Below are positions 1-60,979 of a DNA stretch of 64,000 nt, in pieces; the stretch's first letter is position 1; the number at the start of each line of letters is the position of its first letter. The stretch lies in the IMG/VR virus record IMGVR_UViG_2934156241_000001, positions 31,559 through 95,558 of that record. One strand, given 5' to 3'. The notes under the pieces are model-generated. The model was not told the DNA's origin, ran no database searches, and worked only from the letters and a program-made list of their open reading frames with translations. Origin of the DNA: a virus (Duplodnaviria > Caudoviricetes). The position numbers and the translations under genes are program-made.

Positions 1-1422
1 GGCGGACCCCACCTGTTCCGGGCCTGGGTCGAGCCCACCGCCATCACGGAGGACCCGCCCGCCCTCCCGTTCCACGGCCCCGACAACTGGGTCGGCCTGC
101 ACGCCCTGTGCGGCTACGACAACCACACCGCCCCCCTGGACTCCCCGGGCCTGGCCGCCGTCCATGAGCGTCGTCGTGGGGTGATGGGCAGCTGCCCCGG
201 CAGCCTGCGCCCGGTCCGCACCACCAGGGACCAGCTGACCAGCCGGCACACCGCCGCCCTGTCCTACACCGGCCCCAAGCCCTCCGCCCTGGCCTACTGG
301 TCGAAGCCCGGCGACGTCCTCCACGTGGACGGCCAGGACCTCACCGTCAAGGACTGCCACCCCGACGAGCGCCACCCCTCCCGCGTGCGTGTCCTCGTGA
401 CCGGAGGCACCGACCCGCTGACCTACACCGTCGAGGACACCGCCACGTTCCGGCGCCGCGTCCGCCGCCACAACGTGGAGTGCCAGGCGTGCGGGGTGTA
501 CGCACCCGTGGAGACCGACGAGGCAGTCGACGGCACCCCCACCGTGCGCCTGTGCGGCATGTGCGACCGCGAAGTCCTCGAGGCGCCGCCCGCCCCGATG
601 CTGATGCCCGACCAGGCCCGGGGCATCGCCACCCGGTCCCACCCCGGCGCCCACGACTTCCGCCACAGCCACGACGCCGCCCTCCGGTTCCTCGGCTACA
701 CCTTCCAGATCAGCGAAGACGCCCCGGCCCGCTACGGATGGATCACCCCCGCCGGTACGTGCTCCAGGGTCGGCGAGACCGCCCGGTCCAGCGCGCACCA
801 GCTCCTGCCCGTCATGGTGCTGGAGGACCAGCGGGCAGCCACCCGCGCCGCCGCCCGCGCAGAGCGGCCCGCCCCCTACGTCGCCGGAGACCGCATCGTG
901 TGCGCCGACGGGGTCACCCGCACCTTCCAGGCCATGGCCCCCCGGTTCGGCGGCGAACCGGCCCGTGTGATCGTGGAGGGCGGCGCGCAGTGGCTCGCCA
1001 CCGAGTGCCGTCCGGCCACCCCGGACGAGGAGCAGCAGCCGACCCGCCGCGTCGTGGAGGGCGTGGTCGTCCAGCCCGCCACGGCGGGCAGTGCACCGAA
1101 GCACGTCGACCACCCGGACATCACCGCCGCCCGCGCCGCGCTGCGCACCCTCCTGGCAGCCCGGCTCGGCGAGCGCACCGAGCTGGACGGCTCCGACCCG
1201 GACGTGCGCGGGTACGTGATCGAGCCGCGCGGCCAGGGTCGGGTGGCCGTGTACTGGGCCGAGGCCGGGCGCCTCGTGCGCCACGACGACGCCGAGTTCG
1301 GGGTGTCCCTGGACTGCTTGGAGTGGACGCTCCAGCGGGCCGGGTGGGAGACGGAGCGCATGACCCGCAGCGGCCTGTGCCTGTTCGCACACAACCCGGC
1401 CGCCCGCCCGACCGGCAACTGA
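1..1422 (+). CDS. Mosaic hypothetical protein, 5' end outside window (CxxC pairs; GYTF..GWIT.AG module)
   Basis: Frame is open from base 1 to TGA at 1420-1422; high GC3; shares a module with the next two ORFs. Confidence 0.75.
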   Translation, partial: GGPHLFRAWVEPTAITEDPPALPFHGPDNWVGLHALCGYDNHTAPLDSPGLAAVHERRRGVMGSCPGSLRPVRTTRDQLTSRHTAALSYTGPKPSALAYWSKPGDVLHVDGQDLTVKDCHPDERHPSRVRVLVTGGTDPLTYTVEDTATFRRRVRRHNVECQACGVYAPVETDEAVDGTPTVRLCGMCDREVLEAPPAPMLMPDQARGIATRSHPGAHDFRHSHDAALRFLGYTFQISEDAPARYGWITPAGTCSRVGETARSSAHQLLPVMVLEDQRAATRAAARAERPAPYVAGDRIVCADGVTRTFQAMAPRFGGEPARVIVEGGAQWLATECRPATPDEEQQPTRRVVEGVVVQPATAGSAPKHVDHPDITAARAALRTLLAARLGERTELDGSDPDVRGYVIEPRGQGRVAVYWAEAGRLVRHDDAEFGVSLDCLEWTLQRAGWETERMTRSGLCLFAHNPAARPTGN

Positions 1423-1486: not shown

Positions 1487-1518
1487 CTTGACATTGCAAC
1501 GTGATGTTGCAACACTAT
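1487..1518 (+). promoter_or_regulatory. TTGCAA 13-bp-period promoter/operator, copy 1
   Basis: TTGACA 1488-1493; TTGCAA at 1494 and 1507; then CACTAT. Confidence 0.8.
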
Positions 1519-1567
1519 GCGTATTGGGACGGACGCACCGACCGCCCCCGAACCGCTGGAGGACACC

Positions 1568-2662
1568 ATGGAGATCGCCACCGAGGCGCTGGCCATCACC
1601 ACCCTGGTAGCCGGTGAGATGACCGCCCAGCAGGCCCGAGCCGCCGTCGCCGGTATGTACCCCCAGGCCTGCGCCTTCGACGCACAGCACGCACAGGACG
1701 GCACCGGCACCCTCCTGGGGTACACCTTCCAGGAGCGCCCCCACCCCACGGCCCGCGCCGGTTGGATCACCGCAGCCGGCACCGTGTCCAAGGGCCTGGA
1801 GGCCTACCACTCGGACGCCCGCGTGATCCTGTGCCTGGCCTTCGAAGAGGACCGCGCCACCACCCCGGCCCCGGCCGTCGAGGCCCTGGCCACGCCCGCC
1901 GACGTCACCCGCACCGACGACGTGAAGATCCGCCCGGACGGGCGCGGCAAGTGGAGCGTCGAGCGCGGCACGGACACCCTGGGGGTCATCTGGGACGAAG
2001 GCGCGATGGCCCGGGGCCGCTTCGCGACCTGGTCCCCCTTTGCTCAGACCCCCGGCAGCCTCGCCGGATTCTTCGACGACCCGGCCACGGCTGTCGACGC
2101 GATCGTGGACATGTGGCCCACCAGCCCGGAGGACATCGCCCGGGAGACCGGCGCCGACCTGGCCGAGGTCATCGAGCACGCGGACGCCCTGGTCGAGGAG
2201 TGGGTGGCCGAGGGGCGCCGCGTCTACCGTACGGCCGTCCGGGGCGCAGCGGCCAAGCTCACCAGCGAGGCGGCGGCGACCGTGCGAGTGCACATGGGCC
2301 TCCCGTCCGCCCGGTATGCCGTGCCCATCGGCGCCGACGAGCGGACATGGCCCCGGTTCCACCGCCACGACGCCGCCCTCCGGCACGCGGCCAGCTACGG
2401 CCTGACCGCCGGCGCCGTCCTGGACACAGCCCCGCAGTGGCGCACGCTCCAGGGGGTGGCCGCCCCGTTTCAGCTCTGGGGGCACGAGGACGCCAATGGA
2501 AAGTTCCACCCGTCCGACGACCTGACGGCGTGCGCCGGCCGACCGGTGGCTATCACCCTCACCTGGAACGGCAGCCGCTGGGGCCAGGACAGTGCCGGCC
2601 GGGAGATCCACCTCGGAGGCCCGGCCGTGAAGTACTGGGTCGCCCCCGGCCCGGTCGCCTGA
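1568..2662 (+). CDS. Mosaic hypothetical protein
   Basis: GGAGGA RBS before ATG 1568; LLGYTF..GWIT module and C-terminal WRTLxGVxAPF..YWV module. Confidence 0.8.
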   Translation: MEIATEALAITTLVAGEMTAQQARAAVAGMYPQACAFDAQHAQDGTGTLLGYTFQERPHPTARAGWITAAGTVSKGLEAYHSDARVILCLAFEEDRATTPAPAVEALATPADVTRTDDVKIRPDGRGKWSVERGTDTLGVIWDEGAMARGRFATWSPFAQTPGSLAGFFDDPATAVDAIVDMWPTSPEDIARETGADLAEVIEHADALVEEWVAEGRRVYRTAVRGAAAKLTSEAAATVRVHMGLPSARYAVPIGADERTWPRFHRHDAALRHAASYGLTAGAVLDTAPQWRTLQGVAAPFQLWGHEDANGKFHPSDDLTACAGRPVAITLTWNGSRWGQDSAGREIHLGGPAVKYWVAPGPVA

Positions 2663-2675
2663 CCTGCCCGCCCCA

Positions 2676-2709
2676 GACGCCCCGGCCCTCACGGGAGGCC
2701 CGGGGCGTC
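2676..2709 (+). terminator. GC-rich hairpin after cassette gene
   Basis: gacgccccggccctc-acgg-gaggcccggggcgtc inverted repeat just after the stop codon. Confidence 0.6.
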
Positions 2710-2767
2710 CCGCTGTCGCCGCGCGGTCCCCGGATGACCCGACCGGGTGAAGGTGGACCGCACCCCT

Positions 2768-2805
2768 CATTGCAACTTGACATTGCAAACTCATGTTGCA
2801 ACTAT
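2768..2805 (+). promoter_or_regulatory. TTGCAA 13-bp-period promoter/operator, copy 2
   Basis: TTGCAA at 2770, 2783, 2796; TTGACA 2777-2782, 17-bp spacer, AACTAT. Confidence 0.85.
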
Positions 2806-2854
2806 GGAGACATCAAGAGGGGCACGGAGCCCCCTGGACCGCACGGAGGAAGCC

Positions 2855-4243
2855 ATGAACAACACCACCGCCCAGACCGCCACCGTCGCCCTGGCCCAGG
2901 TCGGCGCCGGCCGCACCGTCCACTTCACCACCGACGCCACCGCCACCCTGTGCGAGCGCCCCGTGAGCCGCGTACTGGACGAGGACCAGGCCGCGAAGAA
3001 GAACAAGCCGTGCAAGCAGTGCGCCGTCGCCCTGGAGGCCGCCGCCACCGAGGAGACGCCGGCCGTCGAGGTCGAGGAGGACCAGGCCGAGAAGGAGGCG
3101 CGGCGCACAGTATCCGGGACGTACCTCCACGCCCAGGACTTCGAGCCGCAGCGCGACGAGGAAGGGCAGCTCCTCGGATACACGTTCGCCGTCCACTCCT
3201 CCACCTCGACCAACTACGGATGGGTGACCACCGCCGGCCACTTCGGTCAGGTACTGGAGCCCTACCGGTCCACCGTCGAGGAATTCCTGCCCGTCGTCGC
3301 CTGGCAGGACGAGCAGGTGGCACGCCGCGCCCCGAAGCTGGCGGAGGCCGCCATCGAGGAGGCGCCGGCCGTCGAGGTCGAGGAAGCCGCGGCCGCCGAA
3401 GAGGCCCCGGTCGAGGAGGCACCGACCGGCGCTGCAGAGGCCCCGGTCGCCGGACGGGTCGAGGTGACCGCGTACACCGCCGCCGTCGATCAGCTCTACC
3501 TCAACGGCCGGGACAACGAGGACCGCGCCCTGTACGTGGACGGCACCGACGTCCTGGAGACCCTCCCGACCCTGCGCCGGATGCCCCGCTGGAACGCGGC
3601 CGAGGAGCGGTTCACCGTCAATAAGGTGGCCCTGATCCTCGTCCGGGACGCCCAGGGTGACCGCGTGTGGGTGCGCGGTGAGGCCGACCCGATCCGCGTG
3701 GACGCCGCAGGTGCGCAGGTGGACGTGGACGCCCCCGCCGAGCCCGGACCGGTGGACATGACCGCCGTCCTGGCCGCGACCAAGCAGCTCCGCCGCCGCC
3801 GCGAGGTCCAGCGGGTCATCGACAACCGCGAGGCCGCCCGCGCCGCGAGTACCCCGACCCCGGTTGTCGAGGAGGCCCCGACCCCGGTGGTCGAGGAGGC
3901 CCCGACCCCGGTGGTCGAGGAGGCCCCGACCCCGGTGGTCGAGGAAGCCCCGGCCCCCGTGGTCGAGGAAGCCCCGGCCCCGGTGGTCGAGGCCCCCGAA
4001 GCCCCGGCCGCTGGTCCGGAGTGGCGCACGCTCAAGGGTGTGGAGGCGCCGTTCCTCCTGTACGGCGAGGACGCCGGAGATGCCTTTCACCCCGCCAACG
4101 ACCGCAAGCGCTGCACCGGGGAGCCTCTGACGATCACCCGCGTATGGATGAGCGCCGGCACCCGGTACGCGCAGGACGCGACCGGCCGGAAGACCCACCT
4201 GTGGGGAGCCGCTACCCGCTACTGGGTGAGCCCCGCAGCCTGA
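2855..4243 (+). CDS. Mosaic hypothetical protein with PVVEEAP(T/A) linker repeats
   Basis: GGAGGA RBS; H..C..CKQC N-terminal motif; shares both modules with 1568-2662. Confidence 0.85.
   Translation: MNNTTAQTATVALAQVGAGRTVHFTTDATATLCERPVSRVLDEDQAAKKNKPCKQCAVALEAAATEETPAVEVEEDQAEKEARRTVSGTYLHAQDFEPQRDEEGQLLGYTFAVHSSTSTNYGWVTTAGHFGQVLEPYRSTVEEFLPVVAWQDEQVARRAPKLAEAAIEEAPAVEVEEAAAAEEAPVEEAPTGAAEAPVAGRVEVTAYTAAVDQLYLNGRDNEDRALYVDGTDVLETLPTLRRMPRWNAAEERFTVNKVALILVRDAQGDRVWVRGEADPIRVDAAGAQVDVDAPAEPGPVDMTAVLAATKQLRRRREVQRVIDNREAARAASTPTPVVEEAPTPVVEEAPTPVVEEAPTPVVEEAPAPVVEEAPAPVVEAPEAPAAGPEWRTLKGVEAPFLLYGEDAGDAFHPANDRKRCTGEPLTITRVWMSAGTRYAQDATGRKTHLWGAATRYWVSPAA
3856..4010 (+). repeat. 24-bp in-frame tandem repeat (about 6 copies, PVVEEAPT/A)
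   Basis: ccggtggtcgaggaggccccgacc repeated. Confidence 0.9.
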
Positions 4244-4273
4244 CCGAAGCAGCCGCAGCGGCCCCGACCGCGA

Positions 4274-4307
4274 GCGATGCGCCGACCCGCACGGGCCGGC
4301 GCATCGC
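4274..4307 (+). terminator. Hairpin after cassette gene
   Basis: gcgatgcgccg...cggcgcatcgc inverted repeat. Confidence 0.6.
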
Positions 4308-4367
4308 TGCGTTCCGGGGCCCTCGTCCGCTGCATGACCCGCCCGGGTGAAGATTCCCCCGCCCTCG

Positions 4368-4407
4368 CATTGCAACTAGACAATGCAATGCGATGTTGCA
4401 ACACTAT
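4368..4407 (+). promoter_or_regulatory. TTGCAA 13-bp-period promoter/operator, copy 3
   Basis: TTGCAA 4370, ATGCAA 4383, TTGCAA 4396; TAGACA in the -35 position. Confidence 0.8.
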
Positions 4408-4454
4408 GCATATCGGGAAGGGCGAGGGGCCTGGACCAGACGGAGGGACACACC

Positions 4455-5198
4455 ATGGACGCCACCACCAAGACCGCGCAGCTGATGGCCCGCCTCGTCG
4501 AGGCCGAGACCACCCTCCGGAACACCCGACGCGAGGAGGCCCGCACCGAGCGCGCCGCCACCCGCGCCACCGCCCGCCTCCTGACCGCCCGCACCGACCT
4601 GGCCGCCGCCCGCCGGAACCTGCGCACCGCCGAGCGCACCGGCAAGAGCCTGGCCGTGGCAACCCGCCGCCTGGCCACCCGCACCGCCCGCGTCGAGAAC
4701 CTGACCACCGCCGCCCGCGAGGCCAAGGCCACCGCGACCGCCGCGCGCCGCGCCGCCCGCGCCGCCGCCCGCCGACTGGACACCCTCGGCCGCCGCGCCG
4801 CCCAGGCAGCCACCCGCACCGTCGCCACCATCGCCCACCGCCTCGGGGAGACCAGCCTCACCCCGGCCCCCGCCGCCGACCGCACCCTGGACGCCACCGA
4901 GCTCCCGGCCGTCGAGGAGATCGAAGCCCACGCCGAGCGCTTCACCGACCTGGACGCCGAGGCCAAGACCCTGGCCAAGTCGGCCGACGCCGAGAAGAAG
5001 TGGCTGCGAACCCTGCCCGTGGGGATCTACGGACGGGTCGTCATCACCCGCACCCCCGGCGGCAGCGTCCTGGACAGCGACCAGGTCGCCCTGGACTACG
5101 CCGCCATGGGTGGCCTGGTGCCCCCGCGCAAGGCCCGCCGCGACACCTTCAAGGTCGCCCTCCAGCCCGAGCTGGCCGCCCTCCCCGCCGCTGCCTGA
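4455..5198 (+). CDS. Hypothetical Arg/Ala-rich coiled-coil protein
   Basis: GGAGG RBS, ATG 4455, high GC3. Confidence 0.8.
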   Translation: MDATTKTAQLMARLVEAETTLRNTRREEARTERAATRATARLLTARTDLAAARRNLRTAERTGKSLAVATRRLATRTARVENLTTAAREAKATATAARRAARAAARRLDTLGRRAAQAATRTVATIAHRLGETSLTPAPAADRTLDATELPAVEEIEAHAERFTDLDAEAKTLAKSADAEKKWLRTLPVGIYGRVVITRTPGGSVLDSDQVALDYAAMGGLVPPRKARRDTFKVALQPELAALPAAA

Positions 5199-5266
5199 CC
5201 CACACCCGCCCGGCCGGGCAGCGGCGTACGCTGCCCGGCCCCTCGCCCCCGAAACGGACGCACGCC

Positions 5267-5817
5267 ATGTCGCTCCTTCCCCGCAGCATCCCGGTACCGG
5301 CCGCCGAGCAGATGGCCGCCACCCTCGCCGCCGTCGGCACCATGCTTGGCCCCTTCAAGGGGAGCAGCAGCATTACCCGCACCGTCGCCCACCAGGGAGC
5401 CGACTGGGAGCTGACCTACCTCGGCCCCATCGGGTGGCGCCTGACCGGCCCAGGCGTGGAGCACGGCATCGGTGTGGACGCCGAGGAGGCCGCCGCGCAC
5501 ATCACCACCCCGCCCGCCGGCCCGGCGCCCGCTCGCCGCGTCCACGTGCGCATCGGCACCCACCGCCGGGCCTACCACCCGGACAGCGCCTGCCCCGCAC
5601 TCAACGGCAAGCCGGAGACGTACCGGGGCCAGGAGGTCATGGACGAGAGCGAAGCCCTGGAATGCGGGCTCGCCCTGTGTGCCCAGTGCGACGCCGCCCT
5701 GACCGCCGCCCCCAGCGGTACGCGGGGGCGCCCGTACCGGCGCTCGTGCGCGCCGCCTGGACGACGCCCCTCGCGGACGGGTGGCGCCTGGGCGTACGCA
5801 GCGCCCTCGCCCTCTGA
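5267..5817 (+). pseudogene. Hypothetical protein (YH...C...LCxxC motif) with apparent 1-nt deletion in C run at 5709-5713
   Basis: Coding-like sequence continues in the -1 frame (QRYAGAPVPALVRAAW...) to a stop at 5817; may be a sequencing error. Confidence 0.5.
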
Positions 5818-5872
5818 CCCACCATCCACGGCCGGCGCACCCGCGACCGGCCGGACCCGAAAGGACACCCCC

Positions 5873-6046
5873 ATGGTTCCCGCCCTGTACGGCATCGTCG
5901 CCCGCCACGTCGCCACCGGTGAGCTGCTGCGCTGCGCCTCCGTGTTCGACCTTGAGGACCTGCCGGTGCTGTTGGAGGAGTTCGCCGACGCGTACCGCGA
6001 CAGCCCGGACGTGCTGATCGACCTGGACACCACCCCCACCTCCTGA
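5873..6046 (+). CDS. Small acidic hypothetical protein (57 aa)
   Basis: GAAAGGA RBS before ATG 5873. Confidence 0.6.
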   Translation: MVPALYGIVARHVATGELLRCASVFDLEDLPVLLEEFADAYRDSPDVLIDLDTTPTS

Positions 6047-6089
6047 CTGCTGCCCGACCGGGTCGCCCCCCACCCAATCCGACGCACCA

Positions 6090-6127
6090 CATTGCAACTT
6101 GACATTGCAATGTGACGTTGTAGCTAT
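6090..6127 (+). promoter_or_regulatory. TTGCAA 13-bp-period promoter/operator, copy 4
   Basis: TTGCAA 6092, 6105, TTGTAG 6118; TTGACA 6099-6104. Confidence 0.85.
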
Positions 6128-6182
6128 GGGGGTGTCGGTGAAGCACTGAAACCCCGCCTGACCAGCACCGAAGGAGCCCAAC

Positions 6183-8429
6183 GTGGCAACCGTCGAACCG
6201 CCTCGGACCCCCGCCGTCGCCATCGCCCGCGAGCTGCGCAGCCTCGGCCTTGGCCAGGGCGCCGGGAAGGACTTCCGGATCGAGGGCCACTACGTCAACG
6301 GCGAGCGCCGCTACACCCACGCGCTGCTGCTCAGCCGCCGCGCCCACGAGGTCATCGCCGCGAACGCCGACCTGATCGAGCAGCGCACCGAAGCAGGCCC
6401 GTTCCCCTTCCTCGTATCGCTCCGCGACCTCGACGGCCGCATGGTTGCCTCAGTCGCCAACGGTGGCCCCCGCTACCGCGATGCCCTGCCCGCCCCCGCC
6501 GCCGAAGAGGCCGCACCGATCGAGCCCCCCGCCGAGGAGGCCGAGCTGTGGGACGGAGTGGAGGGCATCGTCGCCGGCCCCGGCATCGTCCGCCCCGGCG
6601 TGCACGTCGAGTGCCTGCCCCAGCACCGGCCCGGCCCGCGCACCCGCTACGCCCACGGCGGCGTGATCCAGTCGGTCGGCCCGGTCAACGTCCGGTGGCG
6701 CCCGTACGGATACGACCGGGACATCTCCACCCCGCTGGAGCACATGCGCGTGGACGCCTGCGCACACCTCAACATGCGAAAAGACGTGAACCGGGCAGTC
6801 GTCGCCCTGAACGCGGGGCGACTGCCCAGGGACCCCGAGTGGGTCTACTGGAACCTCGCCCAGCACATCACCCATGCCGCGGCCCCGGCCGTCGAGGAGG
6901 CCGAGGAGGCCCCGGTCACGGCGCAGGCCCCGGCGCCCGCCGGCCCCGTGGTCGTCATCCCCTGCGGCGCGGCCAAGCTGCCCCACAACGCCCCCGCCCG
7001 CGAGCTCTACACCGGCAGCTATCACCGGGCCTGCGCCCGCGCCGCTGCCACCCTCGCCGGAGGCAGCGGGACGGTCCTGATCCTGTCCGCGCTGTACGGA
7101 CTCACCCCTCTGGACCGGGTGATCGCCCCGTACGACCTCCGGATGGGACAGGCCGGGAGCGTCACCGGCGACCAGCTCCGCGACCAGGCCCGCGCCCTCG
7201 GCGTGGACCGGGCCGAGGACGTCGTCATCCTGGCCGGTGCCACCTACACCGCCGCCGCCCGCGAGGTCTGGCCGGAGGCATCCACCCCGCTGGCCGGGCT
7301 GGGAGGCATGGGCTACCAGCTCCAGTGGCTGGCCACCCTCGCCGCCGGCGAAACCGCCACGCTCCCGCCTGCCGCCCCCGAGGGGACTGGAGGGACTGAT
7401 GACTCCCACGACAGGGGCCCTGTCCGGCAGGTCCCCGCCGAGCCGGTCGAGGACCACCGCGAGACCTACCGGCAGGAGCGGCAGGCCAGCGCGCTGCACT
7501 GGTCCACCCGCCACGCGGACGTCGTCACCCGGGCCGCAGCCGGACAGCTCGTCCGCGACGAGGACGGCACCGCCCGCCTCACCGGCGCCCACGGACGTCC
7601 CGGCCGCCGAGTCGCCGCCGCACTCCTGCCCCCGCTGGAGGACGCCGGGTTCCTCGCTGCAGTCCCGGCAGGGGACGGCACCGCCCGGATCGAGCTGACC
7701 GGCGACGGCCGCCGCGCCCTCCTCGTGTGGCAGCGCCACCAGCCGGAGCCCGTCGAGCGCCCGCGCAAGAGGGAGGGCCTGCCCCTGTCCCCGCTGCTCG
7801 GCGGGGATGAGGCCCGCCGCCGCGCTGAGGCATTCCACGCCGCCGAGCGGCAGCGCCGCGCCGACTGGCAGCTCTGGTACGCGGAGTTCGAGGAGCGCCG
7901 CGCGGACGAGGAGTGGCGGGACCGTCTGTGGGCCGCGTACGCCAGGGTCCGGGACATCCGTTACCGGCTCGGCCGCAAGGTGCCCGCCGGGTGGGCGCCG
8001 ACCGACGAGGAGGTATCCCGCCACCGGCTGGACCCGGAGGTCGTGGCAGCGCTGCGCGCCCAGCAGGGCCCGGCCGATGAGGGGTCGCCGGCTGTTGAGC
8101 CGCACCCCGCCGACGCTGACCGCCCCCACTCTCATCCTGACACCACATATTGCAACTTGACATTGCAATATGGCGATGCAAGTATCGAGGTGTCAGGAAG
8201 GGCGACCGGCCCGACCAGGAAGGGGTTTGACCATGAGCCGCACCATCCGCATTCGCAACACCGAGGACGCCGTGGTGGAGATCGCCGCCATGACGACGCG
8301 CGTCATCGCGGAGGCCGGGCACAAGGGTCACGACCTGGAGACGGTCGGCCGGATCATCACCTCGGACACCGTCCTGGACACCATCCGCACCGCATACAAC
8401 CGGCGCACCGCCGAGGGGGCCACCCCTAA
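6183..8429 (+). CDS. Multidomain protein with central DUF6884-like domain; last ~100 codons probably spurious read-through
   Basis: VVIPCGAAK..PARELYTG..ILSALYGL..IAPYD motif; AAGGAG RBS; frame runs through operator copy 5 and overlaps the next gene. Confidence 0.7.
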   Translation: MATVEPPRTPAVAIARELRSLGLGQGAGKDFRIEGHYVNGERRYTHALLLSRRAHEVIAANADLIEQRTEAGPFPFLVSLRDLDGRMVASVANGGPRYRDALPAPAAEEAAPIEPPAEEAELWDGVEGIVAGPGIVRPGVHVECLPQHRPGPRTRYAHGGVIQSVGPVNVRWRPYGYDRDISTPLEHMRVDACAHLNMRKDVNRAVVALNAGRLPRDPEWVYWNLAQHITHAAAPAVEEAEEAPVTAQAPAPAGPVVVIPCGAAKLPHNAPARELYTGSYHRACARAAATLAGGSGTVLILSALYGLTPLDRVIAPYDLRMGQAGSVTGDQLRDQARALGVDRAEDVVILAGATYTAAAREVWPEASTPLAGLGGMGYQLQWLATLAAGETATLPPAAPEGTGGTDDSHDRGPVRQVPAEPVEDHRETYRQERQASALHWSTRHADVVTRAAAGQLVRDEDGTARLTGAHGRPGRRVAAALLPPLEDAGFLAAVPAGDGTARIELTGDGRRALLVWQRHQPEPVERPRKREGLPLSPLLGGDEARRRAEAFHAAERQRRADWQLWYAEFEERRADEEWRDRLWAAYARVRDIRYRLGRKVPAGWAPTDEEVSRHRLDPEVVAALRAQQGPADEGSPAVEPHPADADRPHSHPDTTYCNLTLQYGDASIEVSGRATGPTRKGFDHEPHHPHSQHRGRRGGDRRHDDARHRGGRAQGSRPGDGRPDHHLGHRPGHHPHRIQPAHRRGGHP
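8149..8185 (+). promoter_or_regulatory. TTGCAA 13-bp-period promoter/operator, copy 5
   Basis: TTGCAA 8150, 8163, ATGCAA 8176; TTGACA 8157-8162. Confidence 0.85.
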
Positions 8430-8751
8430 GGACGCCGTGATCGCCGTCGGCACCCAGCTCATCGCCCACTACTGCAACTCCGCCGGCATCGAGCCCGCCG
8501 CCGAGGCCGAGCCCGCCGCCCCGGAGACGACCACCGCCGACCCGGCAGGCGTCCCGCACCGCACGCACGGCACGTGCGGCGCCACCTGGAAGCGGGTGCC
8601 CGTGAACCGCAACCGCCCGGACCTCGGCGACACCACCGAGTACGGCCACCCGAAGTGCGGCCAGCCCGCCACGGTGGACCGCTTTGTCAAGGCGGCCCAG
8701 GCCGACTACTTCCGCCCCGTCTACGCCTGCCCGGCCCACACCCGCAACTGA
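8233..8751 (+). CDS. Hypothetical protein with C-terminal Cys/His cluster
   Basis: GGAAGGGG RBS; ATG 8233. Confidence 0.75.
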   Translation: MSRTIRIRNTEDAVVEIAAMTTRVIAEAGHKGHDLETVGRIITSDTVLDTIRTAYNRRTAEGATPKDAVIAVGTQLIAHYCNSAGIEPAAEAEPAAPETTTADPAGVPHRTHGTCGATWKRVPVNRNRPDLGDTTEYGHPKCGQPATVDRFVKAAQADYFRPVYACPAHTRN

Positions 8752-8824
8752 CCAGCCGAAACCCCCTGACCAGCCCCGGCCGGGCGCACCAGCGCCCGGC
8801 CCCCGACGACCGGGAGACCCTCCG

Positions 8825-9235
8825 ATGCCGAGCAAGCCGAAGATGGACCACACCGAGCGCGCCGCCCGCGACCTCATCAACCTCAAGGTCCGCGAAGGCA
8901 TCATCGACCGCCGCAACGGCAACGAGATCATCCGGACCGGCCTGCCGTTCATCACGGTCATGCTCGCCCGCTGGAGGCGCGAAGGCACCTCCCCCCAGTG
9001 GATCACCGAGAAGTTCCAGACCAAGCTCGCGGAGGCCAAGCAGCAGGCCGCCGACGCCCCCGACAGCGCGTTCGCCCAGCAGCGCGCACGCCTGTCCGTA
9101 GTCGCCGCAGAGATGTACCTCGCGGCCTGGGCCGGAATGCAGGCCGACCTGGGCCAGTACCTCGCCGACCTCAAGACCGCCGACCAGGCCGCGGCAGTGG
9201 ACGCCGCGCCCCCGGCCATCGAGCCCGCCCCCTGA
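8825..9235 (+). CDS. Hypothetical protein
   Basis: GGGAG RBS; high GC3. Confidence 0.75.
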   Translation: MPSKPKMDHTERAARDLINLKVREGIIDRRNGNEIIRTGLPFITVMLARWRREGTSPQWITEKFQTKLAEAKQQAADAPDSAFAQQRARLSVVAAEMYLAAWAGMQADLGQYLADLKTADQAAAVDAAPPAIEPAP

Positions 9236-9267
9236 TGCCACCTCACCCCACCCAGGAGGACCCACCC

Positions 9268-9960
9268 GTGTTCCGCGAGACGATTACCCACGCCGGAGGC
9301 ACCACCGAAGGCACCGCCAGTGAAACCCACGCCGTGACGCTCCTCGTCCGCGCCGCCCGCCGGCAGTACGCCATGGAGGCCACCCCCGCCGGAGGTGCGC
9401 TCATCACCTGGACCCGCCACGTCTTCGGCCCCGGCGGAAACAGCCTCGTGCTCGTCGACCGCTCCATCCGGCTCGACCCCATGACGCCGGTCGGCAACCT
9501 CACCGACACCGTGCGGGAAGACCTGTCCCTGGTCGACGGCGACCCGCGCGCCCGGTATGACCTCGTCAAGGGGCGCCGCGTCATCACCGGCACCCTGTGG
9601 CAGGTCCCGCCGTTCCCCACGGCAGGCCTCCGCGCCCGGCGCCTGGTGGTCGAGGACCGGGGACGAGTCCGCCTCACGCTGACGGCCCGCCTGGGGCTCC
9701 TGGCCCACGCGCACCGCACGACCACCACGGCGCCCCGGGGCTGGTACCACCCCTCCGCGTACGAGAGCGCCGGACTCAACCGCCCCGGCCGCCGGGCCGG
9801 ACTCCTGCGCGACAGCACGAGCGCTGCCGTGTGCAGCTGCCTGGAGCTGTCCGCCGTGGGAGGCGACCGCGAGCACGCCCGGCGCCTGGCTCTGGATCAC
9901 CGGCGTGCGGTGACCGCCGAGTTCGTCGCCGACCGGCTCGCCGTGCCGGTGAACGCCTGA
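9268..9960 (+). CDS. Hypothetical protein
   Basis: AGGAGGA RBS before GTG 9268. Confidence 0.75.
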   Translation: MFRETITHAGGTTEGTASETHAVTLLVRAARRQYAMEATPAGGALITWTRHVFGPGGNSLVLVDRSIRLDPMTPVGNLTDTVREDLSLVDGDPRARYDLVKGRRVITGTLWQVPPFPTAGLRARRLVVEDRGRVRLTLTARLGLLAHAHRTTTTAPRGWYHPSAYESAGLNRPGRRAGLLRDSTSAAVCSCLELSAVGGDREHARRLALDHRRAVTAEFVADRLAVPVNA

Positions 9961-10013
9961 CCGGTAGGCGTCGCACCTGGTCACCGCCCCTCCCCACCGC
10001 CCACGCATACCCC

Positions 10014-10052
10014 ATGTTGCAACTTGACGTTGCAACATGGGAATGCAATTAT
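10014..10052 (+). promoter_or_regulatory. TTGCAA 13-bp-period promoter/operator, copy 6
   Basis: TTGCAA 10017, 10030, ATGCAA 10043; TTGACG -35. Confidence 0.85.
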
Positions 10053-10095
10053 GTGTGTGAGGGAGGGCGCCAAGCCAGCCCCGGAAGGGAACGCC

Positions 10096-10596
10096 ATGAC
10101 GAAGACCGCCGCCCGCGCCGCCGCCGCCCGCACCCGGGACCTGGCCGACATCATCAGCAGCCGCACCGCACTCCACCCCGCACGGGACGTACGCCTGCGG
10201 ATGATCGACTACCTGACCGCCGCGGCCGCCGCCTTCGAGGAGAGCGACGGCGCAGTCACCCCGTTCGGCGCCGCCGCCGCACTCCTCCAGTGCCAGGCGC
10301 TCGCCGACAACCACCCGGCCGCCGGGGTCGCGGAAGACGTCTTCTACTACGTCGCCGCCCCCGTGAGCCGCTGCAACCCCGAGGTGCCCGACCTCGCCCC
10401 CGTGAGCTCGGTCCTCGCCGGACAGGAGAGCCGCCTCCGCTCCCAGATCAGCCTGGCCGCCCACGACCTCGACCGAGAGGGCGACGCCACCAACCGCTAC
10501 GCAATCCTCGCCACCCTCGCGGACCTTCACTACCGCTTTGACCGCCTCGCGGAGACCGTGCAGGCCGACAACCTCCGCCCCACCCCAACCCGCTGA
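10096..10596 (+). CDS. Hypothetical protein
   Basis: GGAAGGGA RBS; high GC3. Confidence 0.75.
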   Translation: MTKTAARAAAARTRDLADIISSRTALHPARDVRLRMIDYLTAAAAAFEESDGAVTPFGAAAALLQCQALADNHPAAGVAEDVFYYVAAPVSRCNPEVPDLAPVSSVLAGQESRLRSQISLAAHDLDREGDATNRYAILATLADLHYRFDRLAETVQADNLRPTPTR

Positions 10597-10665
10597 CGCA
10601 CCCCCGGGCCGCCCCCACCGGGGCGGCCCCCACTCCACCTCACCAGCGCCACGACCGGCGCGGAG

Positions 10666-11019
10666 ATGACCGTGGGGCGCGGCTGCTGCAAGCGCGTCAC
10701 CGGCTGGCCCCTGAGCGCCGCCGAGGCCCGCCGCCTCCTCGACCAGGCCCAGCGCGAGGCCCGCGCTCTGGAGGCCTGGGGTGACAGGTGCCGCACGGCC
10801 CTGGCCGTGGGTCGGTTCCCCCGCGACCGCGCGCAGACCATCGGGAGCGCCCTCGTGTCGGACATGCTCGACGGCGCCCCGCAGCACCGCGTCGAGCGAC
10901 GCGCCGCCGAGCTGCCCGCCCTGGTTGGCGCCCTCGGCTGCGCCGGTGCCCCACTGGCCGACCTGGTGGCCGTCGGCGAAGTCCACCGGCGCCGCCGCCT
11001 CGGCATTCCCTGGGTCTGA
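10666..11019 (+). CDS. Hypothetical protein
   Basis: ORF filling the cassette; start uncertain. Confidence 0.5.
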   Translation: MTVGRGCCKRVTGWPLSAAEARRLLDQAQREARALEAWGDRCRTALAVGRFPRDRAQTIGSALVSDMLDGAPQHRVERRAAELPALVGALGCAGAPLADLVAVGEVHRRRRLGIPWV

Positions 11020-11048
11020 CCTGCCCGGCCGCCACCCAGCGCGACACG

Positions 11049-11107
11049 CCCATAGTTGCAACTCCACATTGCTACTTGACATTGCAATGTCGAGTTGCAA
11101 CTATGGG
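11049..11107 (+). promoter_or_regulatory. TTGCAA 13-bp-period promoter/operator, copy 7 (four boxes, near-perfect 59-bp palindrome)
   Basis: Boxes at 11056, 11069 (TTGCTA), 11082, 11095; outer 16-bp arms cccatagttgcaactc / gagttgcaactatggg are exact inverted repeats. Confidence 0.9.
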
Positions 11108-11156
11108 TTTCGGGAGGGGGTGCCAAAGCCCCCACCGCACGAGAACGGAGCAGCCC

Positions 11157-11891
11157 ATGCGCACCCACGCCACCGCCCAGCTCACCGGGGGACGGGACAA
11201 CCAGTGCGACGCCACCGCCGTCTACACCACCCCCAACGGCACCCGCGCATACGTGCTGCTGGACGGAATCGGCGACACCGAGCACGTCCGGGAGTGGACC
11301 CGGGCCGCGGCCCGCCGCCTCGCCCGCACCGCCGCCCGCCACGGGGACGCGGACAGCGGCCTCCGCGCCGTATACGCCGCCTACCAGGCCGAAGACCTGC
11401 GACAGGACGTCTACGCCCGGGACTACGCCCCGATGGCCGCCGCCGTGGTGGTCGTCACCGCCCCCGGTAAGCCGCTGTCCGTGGCCTGGGCCGGCGACTC
11501 CCGCGCGTACCTCCTCGTGGACGCCAAACTCCAGCGCCTCACCAACGACCACAACCTCCGCCGCGTCTACCCGCCGTGCGCGACGTACCCGGAAGGCGGC
11601 AACCGACACCGCATCACCGCATGCCTCGGGTCCTGGCAGACCGACGAGGACGCCATGGACTACGCGGGCCACCCCGCGATGGAGTCCACGACCGTCCCGG
11701 CCCGGAAGTGCCGGCTGCTGCTCGCCTCCGATGGCGCCTACGAGCCGATCCAGGACAACGGCGCCGACCTGCGGACCTACCTCCACGGCACCCCGGCCAA
11801 CGTCGCCCGGGACCTGGTGGAGACCGCCATCGCCTGGGCCGGGACCCGCCCGGACAACGCCACGGTGCTCATCGCCGACCTGACCGCCTGA
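11157..11891 (+). CDS. PP2C/PPM-family Ser/Thr protein phosphatase-like
   Basis: Motifs RDNQCD, LLDGIG, AWAGDSRAY, LTNDHN, LLLASDG, DNATV. Confidence 0.85.
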   Translation: MRTHATAQLTGGRDNQCDATAVYTTPNGTRAYVLLDGIGDTEHVREWTRAAARRLARTAARHGDADSGLRAVYAAYQAEDLRQDVYARDYAPMAAAVVVVTAPGKPLSVAWAGDSRAYLLVDAKLQRLTNDHNLRRVYPPCATYPEGGNRHRITACLGSWQTDEDAMDYAGHPAMESTTVPARKCRLLLASDGAYEPIQDNGADLRTYLHGTPANVARDLVETAIAWAGTRPDNATVLIADLTA

Positions 11892-11948
11892 TCCACCCGA
11901 CACGGGCCGCCCCACCCCGGGGCGGCCCCGGCCCCCAGGAGCACCGTC

Positions 11949-12449
11949 ATGACGCACTTCGCCGCCCCCGCCCTGCCCGAAGGCACCGTCCCCGTGGGCG
12001 CCCTGGTCACCTACCACGGCAGCTTGGCCGAGCTCCACGGACAGCGCTTCAAGGTCATCCCCTGCGGCTGGCACTGCGACCGCGACACCGACGACATGGA
12101 CGGCGCCTCGGACCCTTGCCGCCTCGACGCCCCGGAGCCCCGGTTCGGCCTGTACGACCCGACCACGGGCCAGCCCGTCATCGAACACGTCCGCGCCACG
12201 AGCATCACCCCGGTGACCACGACGTGGCCCTCCGACGCCGTCCCGTTCCGCATCGCCTCGTACTGGTACATGGCCAGCCACACCACCCGCGGCGGCAGCA
12301 GCCATGCCCGGGTCGTGCACTTCTACCGCGACGGCGACACCCGGGGCATCCCCAACGCGGAGACCTGGTGCCGCCTGCGCACCGGCCCCGTCAGCGACCT
12401 CATCCGCCACCTCGACGGCCAAGCCCGCGACCGCACGCGGACGCTCTGA
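11949..12449 (+). CDS. Hypothetical protein
   Basis: AGGAG RBS; ATG 11949. Confidence 0.7.
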   Translation: MTHFAAPALPEGTVPVGALVTYHGSLAELHGQRFKVIPCGWHCDRDTDDMDGASDPCRLDAPEPRFGLYDPTTGQPVIEHVRATSITPVTTTWPSDAVPFRIASYWYMASHTTRGGSSHARVVHFYRDGDTRGIPNAETWCRLRTGPVSDLIRHLDGQARDRTRTL

Positions 12450-12454
12450 CCCCT

Positions 12455-12499
12455 TGTCCGGACAGTGTCCGGGCCTGTCCGCCCCTCCTCGACGGACAC
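12455..12499. repeat. TGTCCGGACA/CGGACAC repeat cluster 1
   Basis: tgtccggacagtgtccgggcctgtccg...cggacac. Confidence 0.65.
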
Positions 12500-12550
12500 G
12501 CCCGGTCGCCTGCCCAGGCACCACCCACACCACGACGAAAGGCGCCACCC

Positions 12551-13483
12551 ATGGCACACATCGACATCACCCACTCCGCCCAGGAAGGCACCCTCGCGGA
12601 CGGCGGCGAGAAGGGCGACGGCACCGGCGGCATCCTGTACGCCCACGGCTTCCGCTGGTTCCGGTCCCTGCGCCAGTACGGCATCCGTAGCTCCCGAGAC
12701 CGGGCCCCGCGACTGATCCTCATGCACACCGTCGCCGAGCAGCTCCGCGCCAACGGGCACACCGCGACCGTCACCGTGGACGGCGAGGTCCGCGACAACG
12801 CCACGGTGCGCGCCGACCAGCACGAGCGCCTGGAGGACCGGCGCACTGCGCTGGAGGCCGAGGGCCAGAAGCTCGCCAAGGAGGCCGAGGTCCTGCGCCG
12901 CCGCTCCGACGAGATGGTCGAGCACCTCCCCCTCGGACAGCCGGTCATGCCCGGCCGACGCGGCCAGTCACACCGCAACCTCCTGAACCGCAGCATCGAC
13001 ACCTCAATCCGCTCGGCCCTCACCGCCCAGGAAGCCGACCGGATGCCCGACCGCATCGCAGGGTCCCGGCGGCAGGAGGCCCACCGCGAGCGGCTGGACG
13101 TCACCGCGCGCCGAGTCGACCGCCTGAACACTGAGCTGCGTTCCCTGGACCGCCGCATGGCCCGGCTGTCCCTGTACCCGGAGACCGGCTCAAGCCTCCT
13201 GCGCCAGCAGTACGAGGGGGAACGCGCCGTGCTCGTCGAGCGGATCGCCGGCGACCAGGCAGTCCTGGACCGGGCCGTGGAGGAGGGCCGGTTCGGCCGC
13301 TACTCCAAGGGCAACGTCCATAAGGGCGACCTGGTCAAGGTCCGGGGCCAGTGGCGCACCGTCGCCCGAGCCAACGCCAAGACCGTGTCCGTGACGACCG
13401 GCTACTCCTGGACCGACAAATACGGCTGGGAGGAAGTCGCCGAACTGCGCTGCTCCCACGTCGAGGACGACGACCAGAGCTGA
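12551..13483 (+). CDS. DUF3560-like protein
   Basis: ITHS..EGTL..G..KGDG..GFRW.RS N-terminus, PLGQPV core, KGDLVKVRGQW..V.RANAKTVSV C-terminus; GAAAGG RBS. Confidence 0.7.
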   Translation: MAHIDITHSAQEGTLADGGEKGDGTGGILYAHGFRWFRSLRQYGIRSSRDRAPRLILMHTVAEQLRANGHTATVTVDGEVRDNATVRADQHERLEDRRTALEAEGQKLAKEAEVLRRRSDEMVEHLPLGQPVMPGRRGQSHRNLLNRSIDTSIRSALTAQEADRMPDRIAGSRRQEAHRERLDVTARRVDRLNTELRSLDRRMARLSLYPETGSSLLRQQYEGERAVLVERIAGDQAVLDRAVEEGRFGRYSKGNVHKGDLVKVRGQWRTVARANAKTVSVTTGYSWTDKYGWEEVAELRCSHVEDDDQS

Positions 13484-13494
13484 CCGTCAGCTCG

Positions 13495-13686
13495 GGACGG
13501 ACGGTGTCCGGACACCACGCGGACACTGTCCGCCCCGGTGTCCGGACTCCCTCTCTCCCGAGCCCGGACCAGCCCGCCCGGACACCCCCTGTCCGGAGAG
13601 TGTCCGCCCTGTCCCACCTGCACCGATGCCCACCCCCGGACACCCAGGCTCACGCCTGTCCGGACACCCCCGGACACCCTGTCCGC
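13495..13686. repeat. TGTCCGGACA/CCGGACAC repeat cluster 2 (more than 10 half-sites)
   Basis: Intergenic array of GGACA and TGTCC in both orientations. Confidence 0.85.
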
Positions 13687-13706
13687 CACACACCGGAAGG
13701 CCCCTC

Positions 13707-14402
13707 GTGATCACCACCCTCCTACTCCTCGCCGCCGCGTTCGCCGTCCACTGGTGGTGGACGAGGAAGCCGAGCACCCGCCACGGTGCCGGCGCCTCGG
13801 CCGCCGCCCGAGCCCGCCAACTCCGTACGCCCCTCGTCCGCCTGGCCACCGCCCTGGGCATCGCCACCGACGCGGAGCGAGAGGCGCACAACTGGGAGAT
13901 CGGCGCCCGGGGCGAGCGCCGTGCCGCCGCGCGCCTCCAGCCCCTGACCGATGACGGCTGGTGGATCCGCTACGACCTCGCCCTCCCTCCCGGGGAAGGG
14001 TCGGCGAACGTGGACGGCCTGGCCATCAGCCCTGCCGGGCGGCCGTTCGTCCTCGACCCGAAAGTCATGGACGGCCGCTTCCCCGTCACCGTCCGCGCGG
14101 GCCGCGTCCGGCACGGCGACCTGGACGTCACCCGGCGCATCCGCAGTGCGGGCAAGCAGGCCGCGGCTGTGTCCCGGGCCCTCGGCGTGCCGGTCGTCGC
14201 CATCGTCGCCATCGAGGGGGCCCAGCTCCTCGGCCCTCACGGGCGACCGGCCACCGAACTGGCCCTCGGCTCCATCCGCATCGTGCCGGCGCACCGCCTG
14301 CCCACCGTCCTGCGGGCCACCGCGCACATCCCCGGGCAACGCCGAGCCGCCGCCCTGGTGGCCACCGCAGAGCGGGTCCTGCCCCCGTACCGGGGACGCT
14401 GA
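13707..14402 (+). CDS. Membrane-anchored NERD (PD-(D/E)xK-type) nuclease-related protein
   Basis: N-terminal TM helix; GARGE...YDL....ANVDGLAISP....VLDPK. Confidence 0.8.
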   Translation: MITTLLLLAAAFAVHWWWTRKPSTRHGAGASAAARARQLRTPLVRLATALGIATDAEREAHNWEIGARGERRAAARLQPLTDDGWWIRYDLALPPGEGSANVDGLAISPAGRPFVLDPKVMDGRFPVTVRAGRVRHGDLDVTRRIRSAGKQAAAVSRALGVPVVAIVAIEGAQLLGPHGRPATELALGSIRIVPAHRLPTVLRATAHIPGQRRAAALVATAERVLPPYRGR

Positions 14403-14409
14403 CACGCCC

Positions 14410-14436
14410 CATGTTGCAACATGAGTATGCAAGTAT
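14410..14436 (+). promoter_or_regulatory. TTGCAA 13-bp-period operator, copy 8 (two boxes, no TTGACA)
   Basis: catgTTGCAAcatg palindrome (box 14414), ATGCAA 14427, then GTAT. Confidence 0.7.
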
Positions 14437-15052: not shown

Positions 15053-15150
15053 CCGCACCTGCCCCCCAGGGGACGGCCCACCAGCCGTCCCCACCCCGGA
15101 GCCACACCCGACCGCCTGACCCGACACGGCCGACGCCCCCCTCCCAGTGA

Positions 15151-15191
15151 AGGGCCCGCACCACCGCCTCGGCGGACCGGTGCGGGCCCCT
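15151..15191. terminator. Hairpin between convergent genes
   Basis: gggcccgcacc...ggtgcgggccc. Confidence 0.6.
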
Positions 15192-15262
15192 CACATATCC
15201 CCTGGACCCAGCACCCGCGAGAGGCTGCCAGCCCAGCCACGGGGAGCCTGCCCCCGCAGGCC

Positions 15263-15658
15263 TTAAAGCCGATAGGCGATCTGTTCGTCTCGCAATGACT
15301 TCAGCATGTCCCTCAGCTCATTTTTTCGTTCGAGCGAGGTGTCTGGGTCGGCGATCTCGCCGCGAATCGTGGCAACCGCTTTTGCGTTCTTGCTGCGAAT
15401 TTCGCGCTCCTCAAGTTTCGCGAACGTCCAGCTCGTGAGGATCGTGAAGGCGATGGCTGCCACAGGGGCCAGGTAGAGAAAGCAGTCCTGCCAGAGGCTT
15501 GCGTCGTCTATGTGGTCGGCGATCGCAACGAGGCCGATGCCGCCCCCGGCGCCCCCGAAGGAAGCGCTCATCTGATCGTGATTGAAGACCTGTCGGTGTT
15601 GAGCAGACAGCGCATTTCCTGTGGTCGAGTGCCCGATTCCCGTGGCTTGATTTGGCAC
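15263..15658 (-). CDS. Small membrane protein with two hydrophobic segments (lower GC)
   Basis: Hydrophobic segments then charged helical tail; composition unlike its neighbours. Confidence 0.6.
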   Translation of the reverse strand: MPNQATGIGHSTTGNALSAQHRQVFNHDQMSASFGGAGGGIGLVAIADHIDDASLWQDCFLYLAPVAAIAFTILTSWTFAKLEEREIRSKNAKAVATIRGEIADPDTSLERKNELRDMLKSLRDEQIAYRL

Positions 15659-15662
15659 CGGG

Positions 15663-16001
15663 TCACCTGTTCTTTTCGCCGTGCGAATTGCTCATCAAGT
15701 AGCGCTCGGCTTCACTCGGCTTTGATAGATCGAGCTTGAGTCGCCTATCTCCGATGGTCACCGTTGCCTGGCTCGGATGACGAGACCGGAGCCAGGCCAC
15801 GATGACGCGAAACGCTGCTTGGGCGGCCGCTACGCCGCCGAATGCGACTAGAAGGTCAAGGGCGTCCATTTCCCCCCCTGGTTGATCGATGCTGATCGTT
15901 CCGTGAGAGCCCACAGCGTGGTTGGGCCACGGCAACCCGCGCTCATCCTCCCGCACCGAATGTCTCGCCGTTCGGCGAACTCCAACAGTGGACCCGGCCA
16001 C
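15663..16001 (-). CDS. EACC1-like (effector-associated constant component) small membrane protein; start uncertain
   Basis: PGGEMDALDLLVAFGG...VIVAWLRSR..ATVTIGDRRLKL resembles the EACC1 pattern as recalled. Confidence 0.45.
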   Translation of the reverse strand: MAGSTVGVRRTARHSVREDERGLPWPNHAVGSHGTISIDQPGGEMDALDLLVAFGGVAAAQAAFRVIVAWLRSRHPSQATVTIGDRRLKLDLSKPSEAERYLMSNSHGEKNR

Positions 16002-60837: not shown

Positions 60838-60969
60838 CTGTCCGGACACCCGCGCGGACACTGCCCGGATAGTGTCCGCGCAGGTCAGCCCCCATGTCCC
60901 TGGGGTTGGCCAGGCACGTGTCCGGCGGTGCCCGGACAGAGCCCGGACATGTGTCCGGCCGTGTCCGGA
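60838..60969. repeat. TGTCCGGACA/CCGGACA repeat cluster 4
   Basis: Intergenic array around a central gcaggtcag. Confidence 0.8.
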
Positions 60970-60979
60970 GGCGCTGTTC

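Follow-up and report, generated by a model that had tools for sequence, protein, structure and literature searches.

Phased hexamer boxes at predicted early promoters of a Streptomyces prophage

We analysed a stretch of 64,000 nucleotides (nt), referred to as the window, which spans positions 31559-95558 of a 95,558-base-pair (bp) IMG/VR provirus record (IMGVR_UViG_2934156241_000001). By sequence, the element appears to be a temperate Streptomyces phage related to phage TurkishDelight. The left part of the window carries an array of genes headed by AT-rich islands, in which the hexamer TTGCAA (the box) recurs at a period of 13 bp. An initial annotation of the window, made from its letters, had described eight such islands and read them as housekeeping promoters under a common repressor. 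All eight were found where it had placed them (Table 1). A regulon of eight members proved to be an artefact of the window, since the full record holds ten islands, to which the promoter of a candidate regulator gene (see below) is to be added. The genes that the islands head belong to the right arm, where early replication genes lie on one side of them and genes for DNA modification and packaging on the other.

The window contains 18 exact copies of TTGCAA, as compared with 2.27 ± 1.44 (maximum 6) in 100 shuffled sequences. Seventeen of the 18 copies lie inside the eight islands and the lone outlier is at 42468. With one mismatch allowed, the window contains 70 hexamers, among which 14 pairs are spaced by 13 bp, as had been described, and 6 pairs by 26 bp; every other spacing from 6 to 39 is represented by one pair at most. 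When the full record was scanned blind to the motif, for AT-rich 40-mers with a GC fraction of 0.45 or less, 23 AT-rich islands were recovered and the box carriers were exactly the ten. A generic promoter and terminator scan, whose criteria are unsuited to Streptomyces, recovered one island and no relevant terminators.

The boxes are interleaved with promoter elements in a fixed register. When the islands are aligned on the last box, nine of the ten have the order TTGCAA (box A), C, TTGACA, TTGCAA (box B), N7 and WTGCAA (box C). An AAnnnT hexamer opens with the last two bases of box C, 17 bp after TTGACA. Within the window, a TTGACA-like −35 precedes the second-last box in seven of the eight islands and is missing from island 8. 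Start codons with GGAG-type ribosome sites follow 47-59 nt past the last box. The layout outlined in the initial annotation (a −35 in seven copies, a −10-like hexamer at the last box and a start codon some 40-60 bp downstream) thus holds.

Seven closely related prophages have islands of the same anatomy, of which 40 distinct ones were compared; the sole criterion in choosing them was a TTGACA-like hexamer with a TTGCAA-like one after it. Three positions are invariant in this set (40/40): T20 and G21, the T and G of the third box at the position of the extended −10 'TGn', and T28, the closing T of AAnnnT. All three boxes, the upstream one included, are strongly conserved. Both 7-bp gaps have the form CnTnAnG, one of them (C+TTGAC+G) being the −35 itself, so that the repeating unit is TTGCAA-CnTnAnG, with dyads at the box centres and at the gap centres. 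If transcription starts about 7 nt after the −10, the boxes would be centred near −39.5, −26.5 and −13.5. Three islands depart from the pattern: island 7 has a fourth box one period farther upstream, the record-12181 island has an additional box two periods upstream (record 12155), and island 8 has two boxes only, in a layout that matches the regulator's own promoter. As judged from these elements, each island is a predicted strong host (HrdB-type) promoter with TTGACA, a 17-bp spacer and a TG-extended AAnnnT −10.

The leaders downstream of the islands contain a short GC hairpin whose place is fixed, some 10-30 nt beyond the −10 (for example at window 2819-2833, 8200-8212 and 11117-11134, and also at related loci). 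A perfect hairpin of at least 4 bp is present in 32 of 56 distinct leaders, against 9.5 ± 2.9 after shuffling, with 16 different stem sequences; RNAalifold gave no consensus structure on 45 leaders. The hairpin may be a 5′ stem that stabilises the messenger RNA (mRNA).

Table 1. Positions of the islands, genes and other features. Numbers refer to the window unless preceded by 'record' or a locus name; boxes are given by their first base and read TTGCAA unless spelled out; aa, amino acids; ORF, open reading frame.
Feature	Position	Strand	Details
Homolog of TurkishDelight immunity repressor gp54	record 2068-2523	−	
Cro homolog	record 2688-2903		
Record-12181 island	record 12181-12212		heads gene for 538-aa protein
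Candidate regulator gene	record 29912-30403	−	163 aa; 1,155-1,646 nt before window base 1
Island before the window	record 30470-30501		just before the window; heads first array gene
First array gene, C-terminal part	1-1422	+	824 aa, starts at record 30506; paralog of next two genes
Island 1	1488-1516	+	−35 TTGACA 1488-1493; boxes 1494-1499, 1507-1512; −10 AACACT 1511-1516
Gene, 364 aa	1568-2662	+	no family; paralog of neighbours; then GC hairpin ~2676-2709
Island 2	2770-2805	+	boxes 2770, 2783, 2796; −35 TTGACA 2777-2782; −10 AACTAT 2800-2805
Gene, 462 aa	2855-4243	+	no family; paralog; then hairpin ~4249-4333
Island 3	4370-4405	+	boxes 4370, 4383 (ATGCAA), 4396; −35 TAGACA 4377-4382; −10 AACACT 4400-4405
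Unit 3	4455-6046	+	genes 4455-5198, 5267-6046, no family; hairpin 5212-5240 between
Island 4	6092-6127	+	boxes 6092, 6105, degenerate 6118 (TTGTAG); −35 TTGACA 6099-6104; −10 AGCTAT 6122-6127
DUF6884-domain gene	6183-8429	+	ORF open to 8429; coding signal stops ~8050-8100, true end uncertain
Island 5	8150-8185	+	boxes 8150, 8163, 8176 (ATGCAA); −35 TTGACA 8157-8162; −10 AAGTAT 8180-8185
Unit 5	8233-9960	+	genes 8233-8751, 8825-9235, 9268-9960, no family; hairpin 8778-8801
Island 6	10017-10052	+	boxes 10017, 10030, 10043 (ATGCAA); −35 TTGACG 10024-10029; −10 AATTAT 10047-10052
Unit 6	10096-11019	+	genes 10096-10596, 10666-11019, no family; hairpin 10606-10629
Island 7	11056-11104	+	boxes 11056, 11069 (TTGCTA), 11082, 11095; −35 TTGACA 11076-11081; −10 AACTAT 11099-11104
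Unit 7	11157-14402	+	PP2C-like phosphatase 11157-11891; gene 11949-12449; DUF3560 12551-13483; NERD 13707-14402
Island 8	14414-14436	+	boxes 14414, 14427 (ATGCAA); TG-extended −10 AAGTAT 14431-14436
Last array gene, 190 aa	14480-15052	+	no family; then two strong hairpins 15069-15092, 15147-15194
TGTCCGGACA-type palindrome clusters	12455-12474, 13505-13666, 32855-32953, 60839-60970, 63597-63720		
ArsR/HTH_20-type host box loci	L039 1488-1519, L040 2262-2307, L041 1473-1519		

A divergent gene encodes the candidate regulator

The repressor had been said to lie outside the window, and the best candidate was indeed found just before its first base. The gene is divergent from the first island, about 65 bp away, and its product is 49% identical to TurkishDelight gp102, which is annotated as 'helix-turn-helix DNA binding domain protein' and holds the same divergent place, before gp103. 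The two halves of the protein are 60% identical to each other over 70 residues. An AlphaFold2 model built on an alignment of 43 homologs (predicted local distance difference test, pLDDT, 90.2) shows, twice, a helix of about 40 residues followed by two short helices. According to this model, the regulator is a putative single-chain pseudo-dimer, a tandem of a long helix and a predicted helix-turn-helix.

The family is poorly annotated. A large protein collection contains 139 relatives, nearly all from Streptomyces, in tandem forms (~163 aa) and single-domain forms (~90-100 aa). The divergent placement next to the first island is found in the record, in TurkishDelight and at all tandem-form loci. 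A tblastn search of 50,697 phage records matched TurkishDelight only. Pfam gave no family for the regulator, even at E ≤ 10 apart from noise, and its PHROG is phrog_34713, of unknown function. The fold search returned no PDB match with E < 1 (best 1.2) and one unnamed viral model at a template modelling (TM) score of 0.78, while a sequence profile against PDB gave nothing meaningful. An HTH_3/XRE domain was not recognised in the protein, the 'HTH cro/C1-type' lead scoring 0.84, below the reliability line of the tool.

The boxes accompany this gene at nearly all of the homolog loci. Upstream of the regulator ATG lies TTGCAA-N7-TGGCAc, overlapping a TGn-CAnAsT −10, and this two-box arrangement is kept in all clades. 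Because the −10 ends 6 nt before the ATG and a ribosome site is lacking, the regulator mRNA is probably leaderless. Exact TTGCAA is present within 200 nt upstream of the regulator gene at 18 of 19 homolog loci (39 boxes); on the far side of the gene there are 3 boxes in about 208 kb. Seven single-domain loci, including that of Jiangella, share almost no other gene with the prophage, yet they retain the boxes, and the Jiangella locus has three to four of them at the 13-bp period.

Protein and site also vary together. Loci whose regulator has the recognition-helix motif DRNHVGR carry three TTGCAA boxes, and those with DRNWVGE (TurkishDelight, L020 and L027) carry only the middle box, extended to the 18-bp palindrome TTGACTTTGCAAAGTCAA. 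L028, the sole locus without an exact box, has TTACAA/TTGTAA in its array and near its regulator gene. This covariation follows the phylogeny and is therefore suggestive, not proof. Taken as a whole, the sequence comparison indicates that the boxes are most likely the operator of the 163-aa phage protein.

The paired site in host genomes

Whole host genomes of three related prophages (10.1, 7.2 and 9.0 Mb) were scanned for TTGCAA-N7-KTGCAA. All sites fall within the prophage, and a control scan with the reversed pattern gave none. In these three genomes the paired site is thus not equally common in host intergenic DNA; equal abundance there was the outcome that the initial annotation had named as speaking against its regulon.

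We then extended the scan to a sample of 201 Streptomyces genomes, six of which encode the regulator. At least one exact paired site was found in 23 genomes. Only two have three or more separate sites, both with a close tandem regulator, and the other 21 have one site or two adjacent ones. Three of these 21 were examined; in each, three to four TTGCAA boxes, 13-14 bp apart, stand directly before a gene of the ArsR/HTH_20 family (Table 1). By sequence, these look like an unrelated host autoregulatory site that has the same hexamer and a similar phase.

Genes and units of the array

The islands divide the array into units of one to four genes. The first three array genes are paralogs. Most array proteins had no family in Pfam, PHROGs or PADLOC, the exceptions being the DUF6884, PP2C-like phosphatase, DUF3560 and NERD proteins. 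The record-12181 island heads the gene of a protein with N-terminal matches to PHROG families, those called DNA binding protein and replication initiation protein.

Two reading frames are ambiguous. In ORF 5267-6046, a stop in another frame at 5815-5817 is followed by a stretch resembling a ribosome site (GAAAGGA) and by an in-frame ATG at 5873, so that the ORF may represent two genes or a frameshift. ORF 6183-8429 has no in-frame stop before island 5 and overruns the start of the next gene. Because it matches two separate TurkishDelight genes, gp117 (in its C-terminal part) and gp112, it is either a fusion or a gene whose true end is unclear. Its DUF6884 product also matches the candidate defence family PDC-M57A and, weakly, DpdC.

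The units had been pictured as self-contained promoter-gene-terminator cassettes of accessory genes, with several upstream genes ending in a hairpin. Their own promoters fit this picture; their gene content and ends fit it only in part. Among the segments that precede islands, folding covered those of islands 1, 2, 3, 4, 6 and 7. Strong GC hairpins were found before islands 1, 2 and 3 and none before islands 4, 6 and 7, and equally strong hairpins occur within multi-gene units (after 5198, 8751, 10596 and 11891). The term accessory was an overstatement. When gene order was compared with nine related loci and TurkishDelight, as the initial annotation had proposed, most array genes recurred in a similar order, with a few swaps or relocations, for example of the NERD and DUF6884 genes and in the order of the first paralogs. 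An integron-like or recombination-site reading was rejected on this synteny. From these comparisons the array looks like a conserved early block and not like freely exchanged accessory cassettes. In similarity searches with the array region, the sole phage match was to TurkishDelight, over 400 bp of the phosphatase gene, and a near-identity search of plasmids gave none.

The element and its other features

The record's portal protein shares 62% identity with its counterpart in Streptomyces phage TurkishDelight (93.6 kb), whose annotations include a tyrosine integrase, the immunity repressor gp54 and Cro (gp55). Homologs of both gp54 and Cro are present near the left end of the record (Table 1). 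It also encodes homologs of the TurkishDelight exonuclease (YqaJ), WhiB, two ParB-like proteins and the terminase, and it ends 1.6 kb past an amidase (endolysin-like) gene. No integrase homolog is among the record's matches to TurkishDelight genes, and so one prophage end is probably missing, despite a completeness estimate of 100.

Farther along the window, genes for 6-pyruvoyl-tetrahydropterin synthase, a radical SAM enzyme and GTP cyclohydrolase I (20777-22538) suggest 7-deazaguanine DNA modification. Directly after the array, a lower-GC insert on the minus strand (15263-16001) contains two small ORFs, one of which matches EACC1 (Effector Associated Constant Component 1); PADLOC gave no match on this insert. 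A second dispersed motif, the 10-bp palindrome TGTCCGGACA with its near-copies, is clustered between genes (Table 1). With one mismatch allowed, GTCCGGACA has 74 matches against 35.5 ± 6.7 expected, and TurkishDelight intergenic regions also hold GGACAC-rich stretches. The palindrome may be the site of another regulator.

Discussion

Our results are probably best explained by a repressor regulon of at least ten promoters, together with autoregulation, that works as a second circuit beside CI/Cro. The promoters have every strong housekeeping element and should therefore fire without help. It is this strength, together with boxes in the spacer and the −10 and an outward-facing regulator gene that has a box of its own, that leads us to read the system as repression. 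In pointing away from the lytic genes, the regulator gene resembles those of autoregulated lysogeny repressors, and the separate CI/Cro pair in the record is why we place it in a second circuit. Of the earlier proposal of repressor-covered housekeeping promoters, the promoter elements and the phased boxes stand by sequence comparison, while the repression itself is what we infer from them.

The mechanism would be simple occlusion. Regulator bound over the −35, the spacer and the −10 would shut RNA polymerase out at ten promoters, those of the right-arm early genes and of the replication-initiator-like gene. The same protein would act at its own, apparently leaderless, promoter in negative autoregulation, so that the regulon would comprise at least ten promoters plus the regulator's own. 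How the proteins would be seated on the phased sites can be pictured in three ways. One protein could sit on each box, reading T.A.gTTGCAAc.T.A, an arrangement favoured by the 18-bp palindrome of the TurkishDelight clade; one protein could sit on each gap, reading GCAAC-N5-GTTGC with its heads 10 bp apart; or each box could take one head, 13 bp apart. Under each of them neighbours would be rotated by about 86 degrees, which makes the 'spiral' of the initial annotation a fair geometric reading.

A more specific model can be drawn, although we regard it as tentative and, taken in all its parts, somewhat doubtful. Here a new fold family of two-headed single-chain repressors, whose single-domain relatives are presumably dimeric, would assemble side by side on the 13-bp-phased boxes, a quarter turn apart, and coat the core promoter. 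In the lysogen, ten strong promoters and the replication-initiator gene would be silenced independently of CI, and they would be released jointly.

Several points weigh against the assignment of the boxes to a repressor of this family. DNA binding by the regulator would follow from a predicted helix-turn-helix and from the annotation of its homolog, and Pfam, PHROGs functions, solved structures and the fold search give it no significant assignment. Possible binders also include further helix-turn-helix proteins of the record and its WhiB homolog. TTGCAA at a similar phase before a host ArsR-family gene means that the motif is not unique to the regulator family. Finally, box C includes the extended −10 TG and the first two bases of the −10, so that part of its conservation could reflect promoter function alone.

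The tandem helix-turn-helix protein could also bind the boxes to turn the array on, as an activator or anti-silencer, which we consider improbable. Box A near −39.5 is where class II activators bind, and at the promoter of the regulator gene a box falls in the region of a poor −35. The Lsr2 silencer typically targets AT-rich islands in Streptomyces, and a bound regulator could relieve silencing of this kind. However, with a −35 close to consensus, a 17-bp spacer and a TG-extended −10, the array promoters should have no need of activation; the placement of boxes B and C within the spacer and over the −10 is typical of occlusion, and the gene is oriented like those of repressors expressed in lysogeny. 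Rather less probable still is that the boxes are elements of promoter strength or recognition for the host RNA polymerase or an associated factor, such as the phage WhiB homolog, with the tandem protein unrelated to them. The fixed register of the boxes with the −35 and −10, the extended −10 TG supplied by box C and the presence of a WhiB homolog in the record fit such a role. It does not predict the extra in-phase boxes well before the −35 (in island 7 and at record 12155), nor the boxes at the regulator's promoter and beside single-domain homologs in unrelated contexts, and the dyad patterns exceed what a promoter needs.

A host protein as the binder, either Nur (Fur family) or the ArsR-family regulator with TTGCAA repeats before its own gene, seems to us very unlikely. 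The initial annotation did not recognise the motif as a known actinobacterial operator, and this needs qualification on two counts: all three host sites examined have boxes 13-14 bp apart before an ArsR/HTH_20 gene, and the Streptomyces Nur box, with the consensus tTGCaa-N5-ttGCAA (PMC3919588), has the same hexamer, repeated and overlapping the promoter. Nur, however, controls a host regulon through boxes at a period of 11 (N5), as opposed to 13 (N7) here, and it was rejected on spacing: the window lacks box pairs 11 bp apart, and its phased pairs are all at 13 or 26. Moreover, the phage-type paired sites are lacking outside the prophage in the three host genomes, and the ArsR-type locus occurs in only a minority of the 201 genomes. 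We give least credence to the idea that the repeats are recombination junctions at which promoter-gene cassettes are swapped among phages, with no dedicated regulator. The paralogy of the first three cassettes and the few order changes and relocations among relatives would suit it, whereas gene order is mostly kept out to TurkishDelight, conservation is focused on the boxes and promoter elements and does not run along the whole island, and the boxes at the regulator promoter would be left unexplained.

The repressor regulon that we favour resembles known phage systems in part. It shares with phage repressors that have dispersed operators a site recurring at many promoters and overlapping the core promoter, whose elements were here assigned by sequence. 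Phage phiC31, studied by Ingham, Wilson and Smith in the 1990s, reportedly has a repressor gene, c, and conserved inverted repeats (CIRs) in its early intergenic regions. Like phiC31, the element would be a temperate Streptomyces phage with one repressor and many near-identical operators at early promoters and at the repressor's own. Unlike phiC31, which has one 17-bp inverted repeat, it has a 6-bp palindrome at a 13-bp period in a host-type promoter; its regulator is unrelated, as the tblastn result indicates, and a separate CI/Cro-like pair is present. Lambda operators are 17 bp long, with a centre spacing of 23-24 bp, at two loci (OR1-3 and OL1-3). Two to four adjacent sites over the −35 and −10 and a divergent, putatively autoregulated repressor promoter are reminiscent of lambda, while the period of 13 bp and the ten or more loci are not. 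In the many scattered targets for one repressor, the system is closer to C1 of phage P1, and with a regulator beside CI/Cro homologs its logic resembles that of the second immunity regions of P22 or P1 more closely. The stoperators of cluster A mycobacteriophages, asymmetric sites of 13 bp, can block elongation too and keep one orientation within transcription units; the sites described here differ in being palindromic, set in phased arrays and confined to promoters. A two-domain single polypeptide with many dispersed sites is otherwise a likeness to the repressors of these mycobacteriophages (L5 gp71 and TipsytheTRex; PMC9283540).

The general design, in which the site of one regulator is repeated many times at early promoters and recurs at the gene encoding that regulator, is thus already known from phiC31, the cluster A mycobacteriophages and P1. 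What is new is the protein family, its single-chain duplicated form, the 13-bp-phased hexamers tightly interleaved with the promoter elements and the proposed second circuit beside CI/Cro. A search of the printed literature, with supplementary files outside its reach, found nothing on the motif, on TurkishDelight or on related descriptions.

With these findings, a candidate regulator and its operator can be put to the test in a group of temperate Streptomyces phages and prophages, about 95 kb in size, that has one isolated member and no regulation that we found in print. If confirmed, the regulator would add an uncharacterised DNA-binding family (phrog_34713, with no Pfam entry), and its natural single-domain and fused forms would be useful for understanding how dimeric repressors turn into single chains. 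The islands are compact strong promoters, which may be repressible, for Streptomyces engineering. For the biology of these phages, our results suggest that a second repressor besides CI may be needed to silence many independent promoters of the host type.

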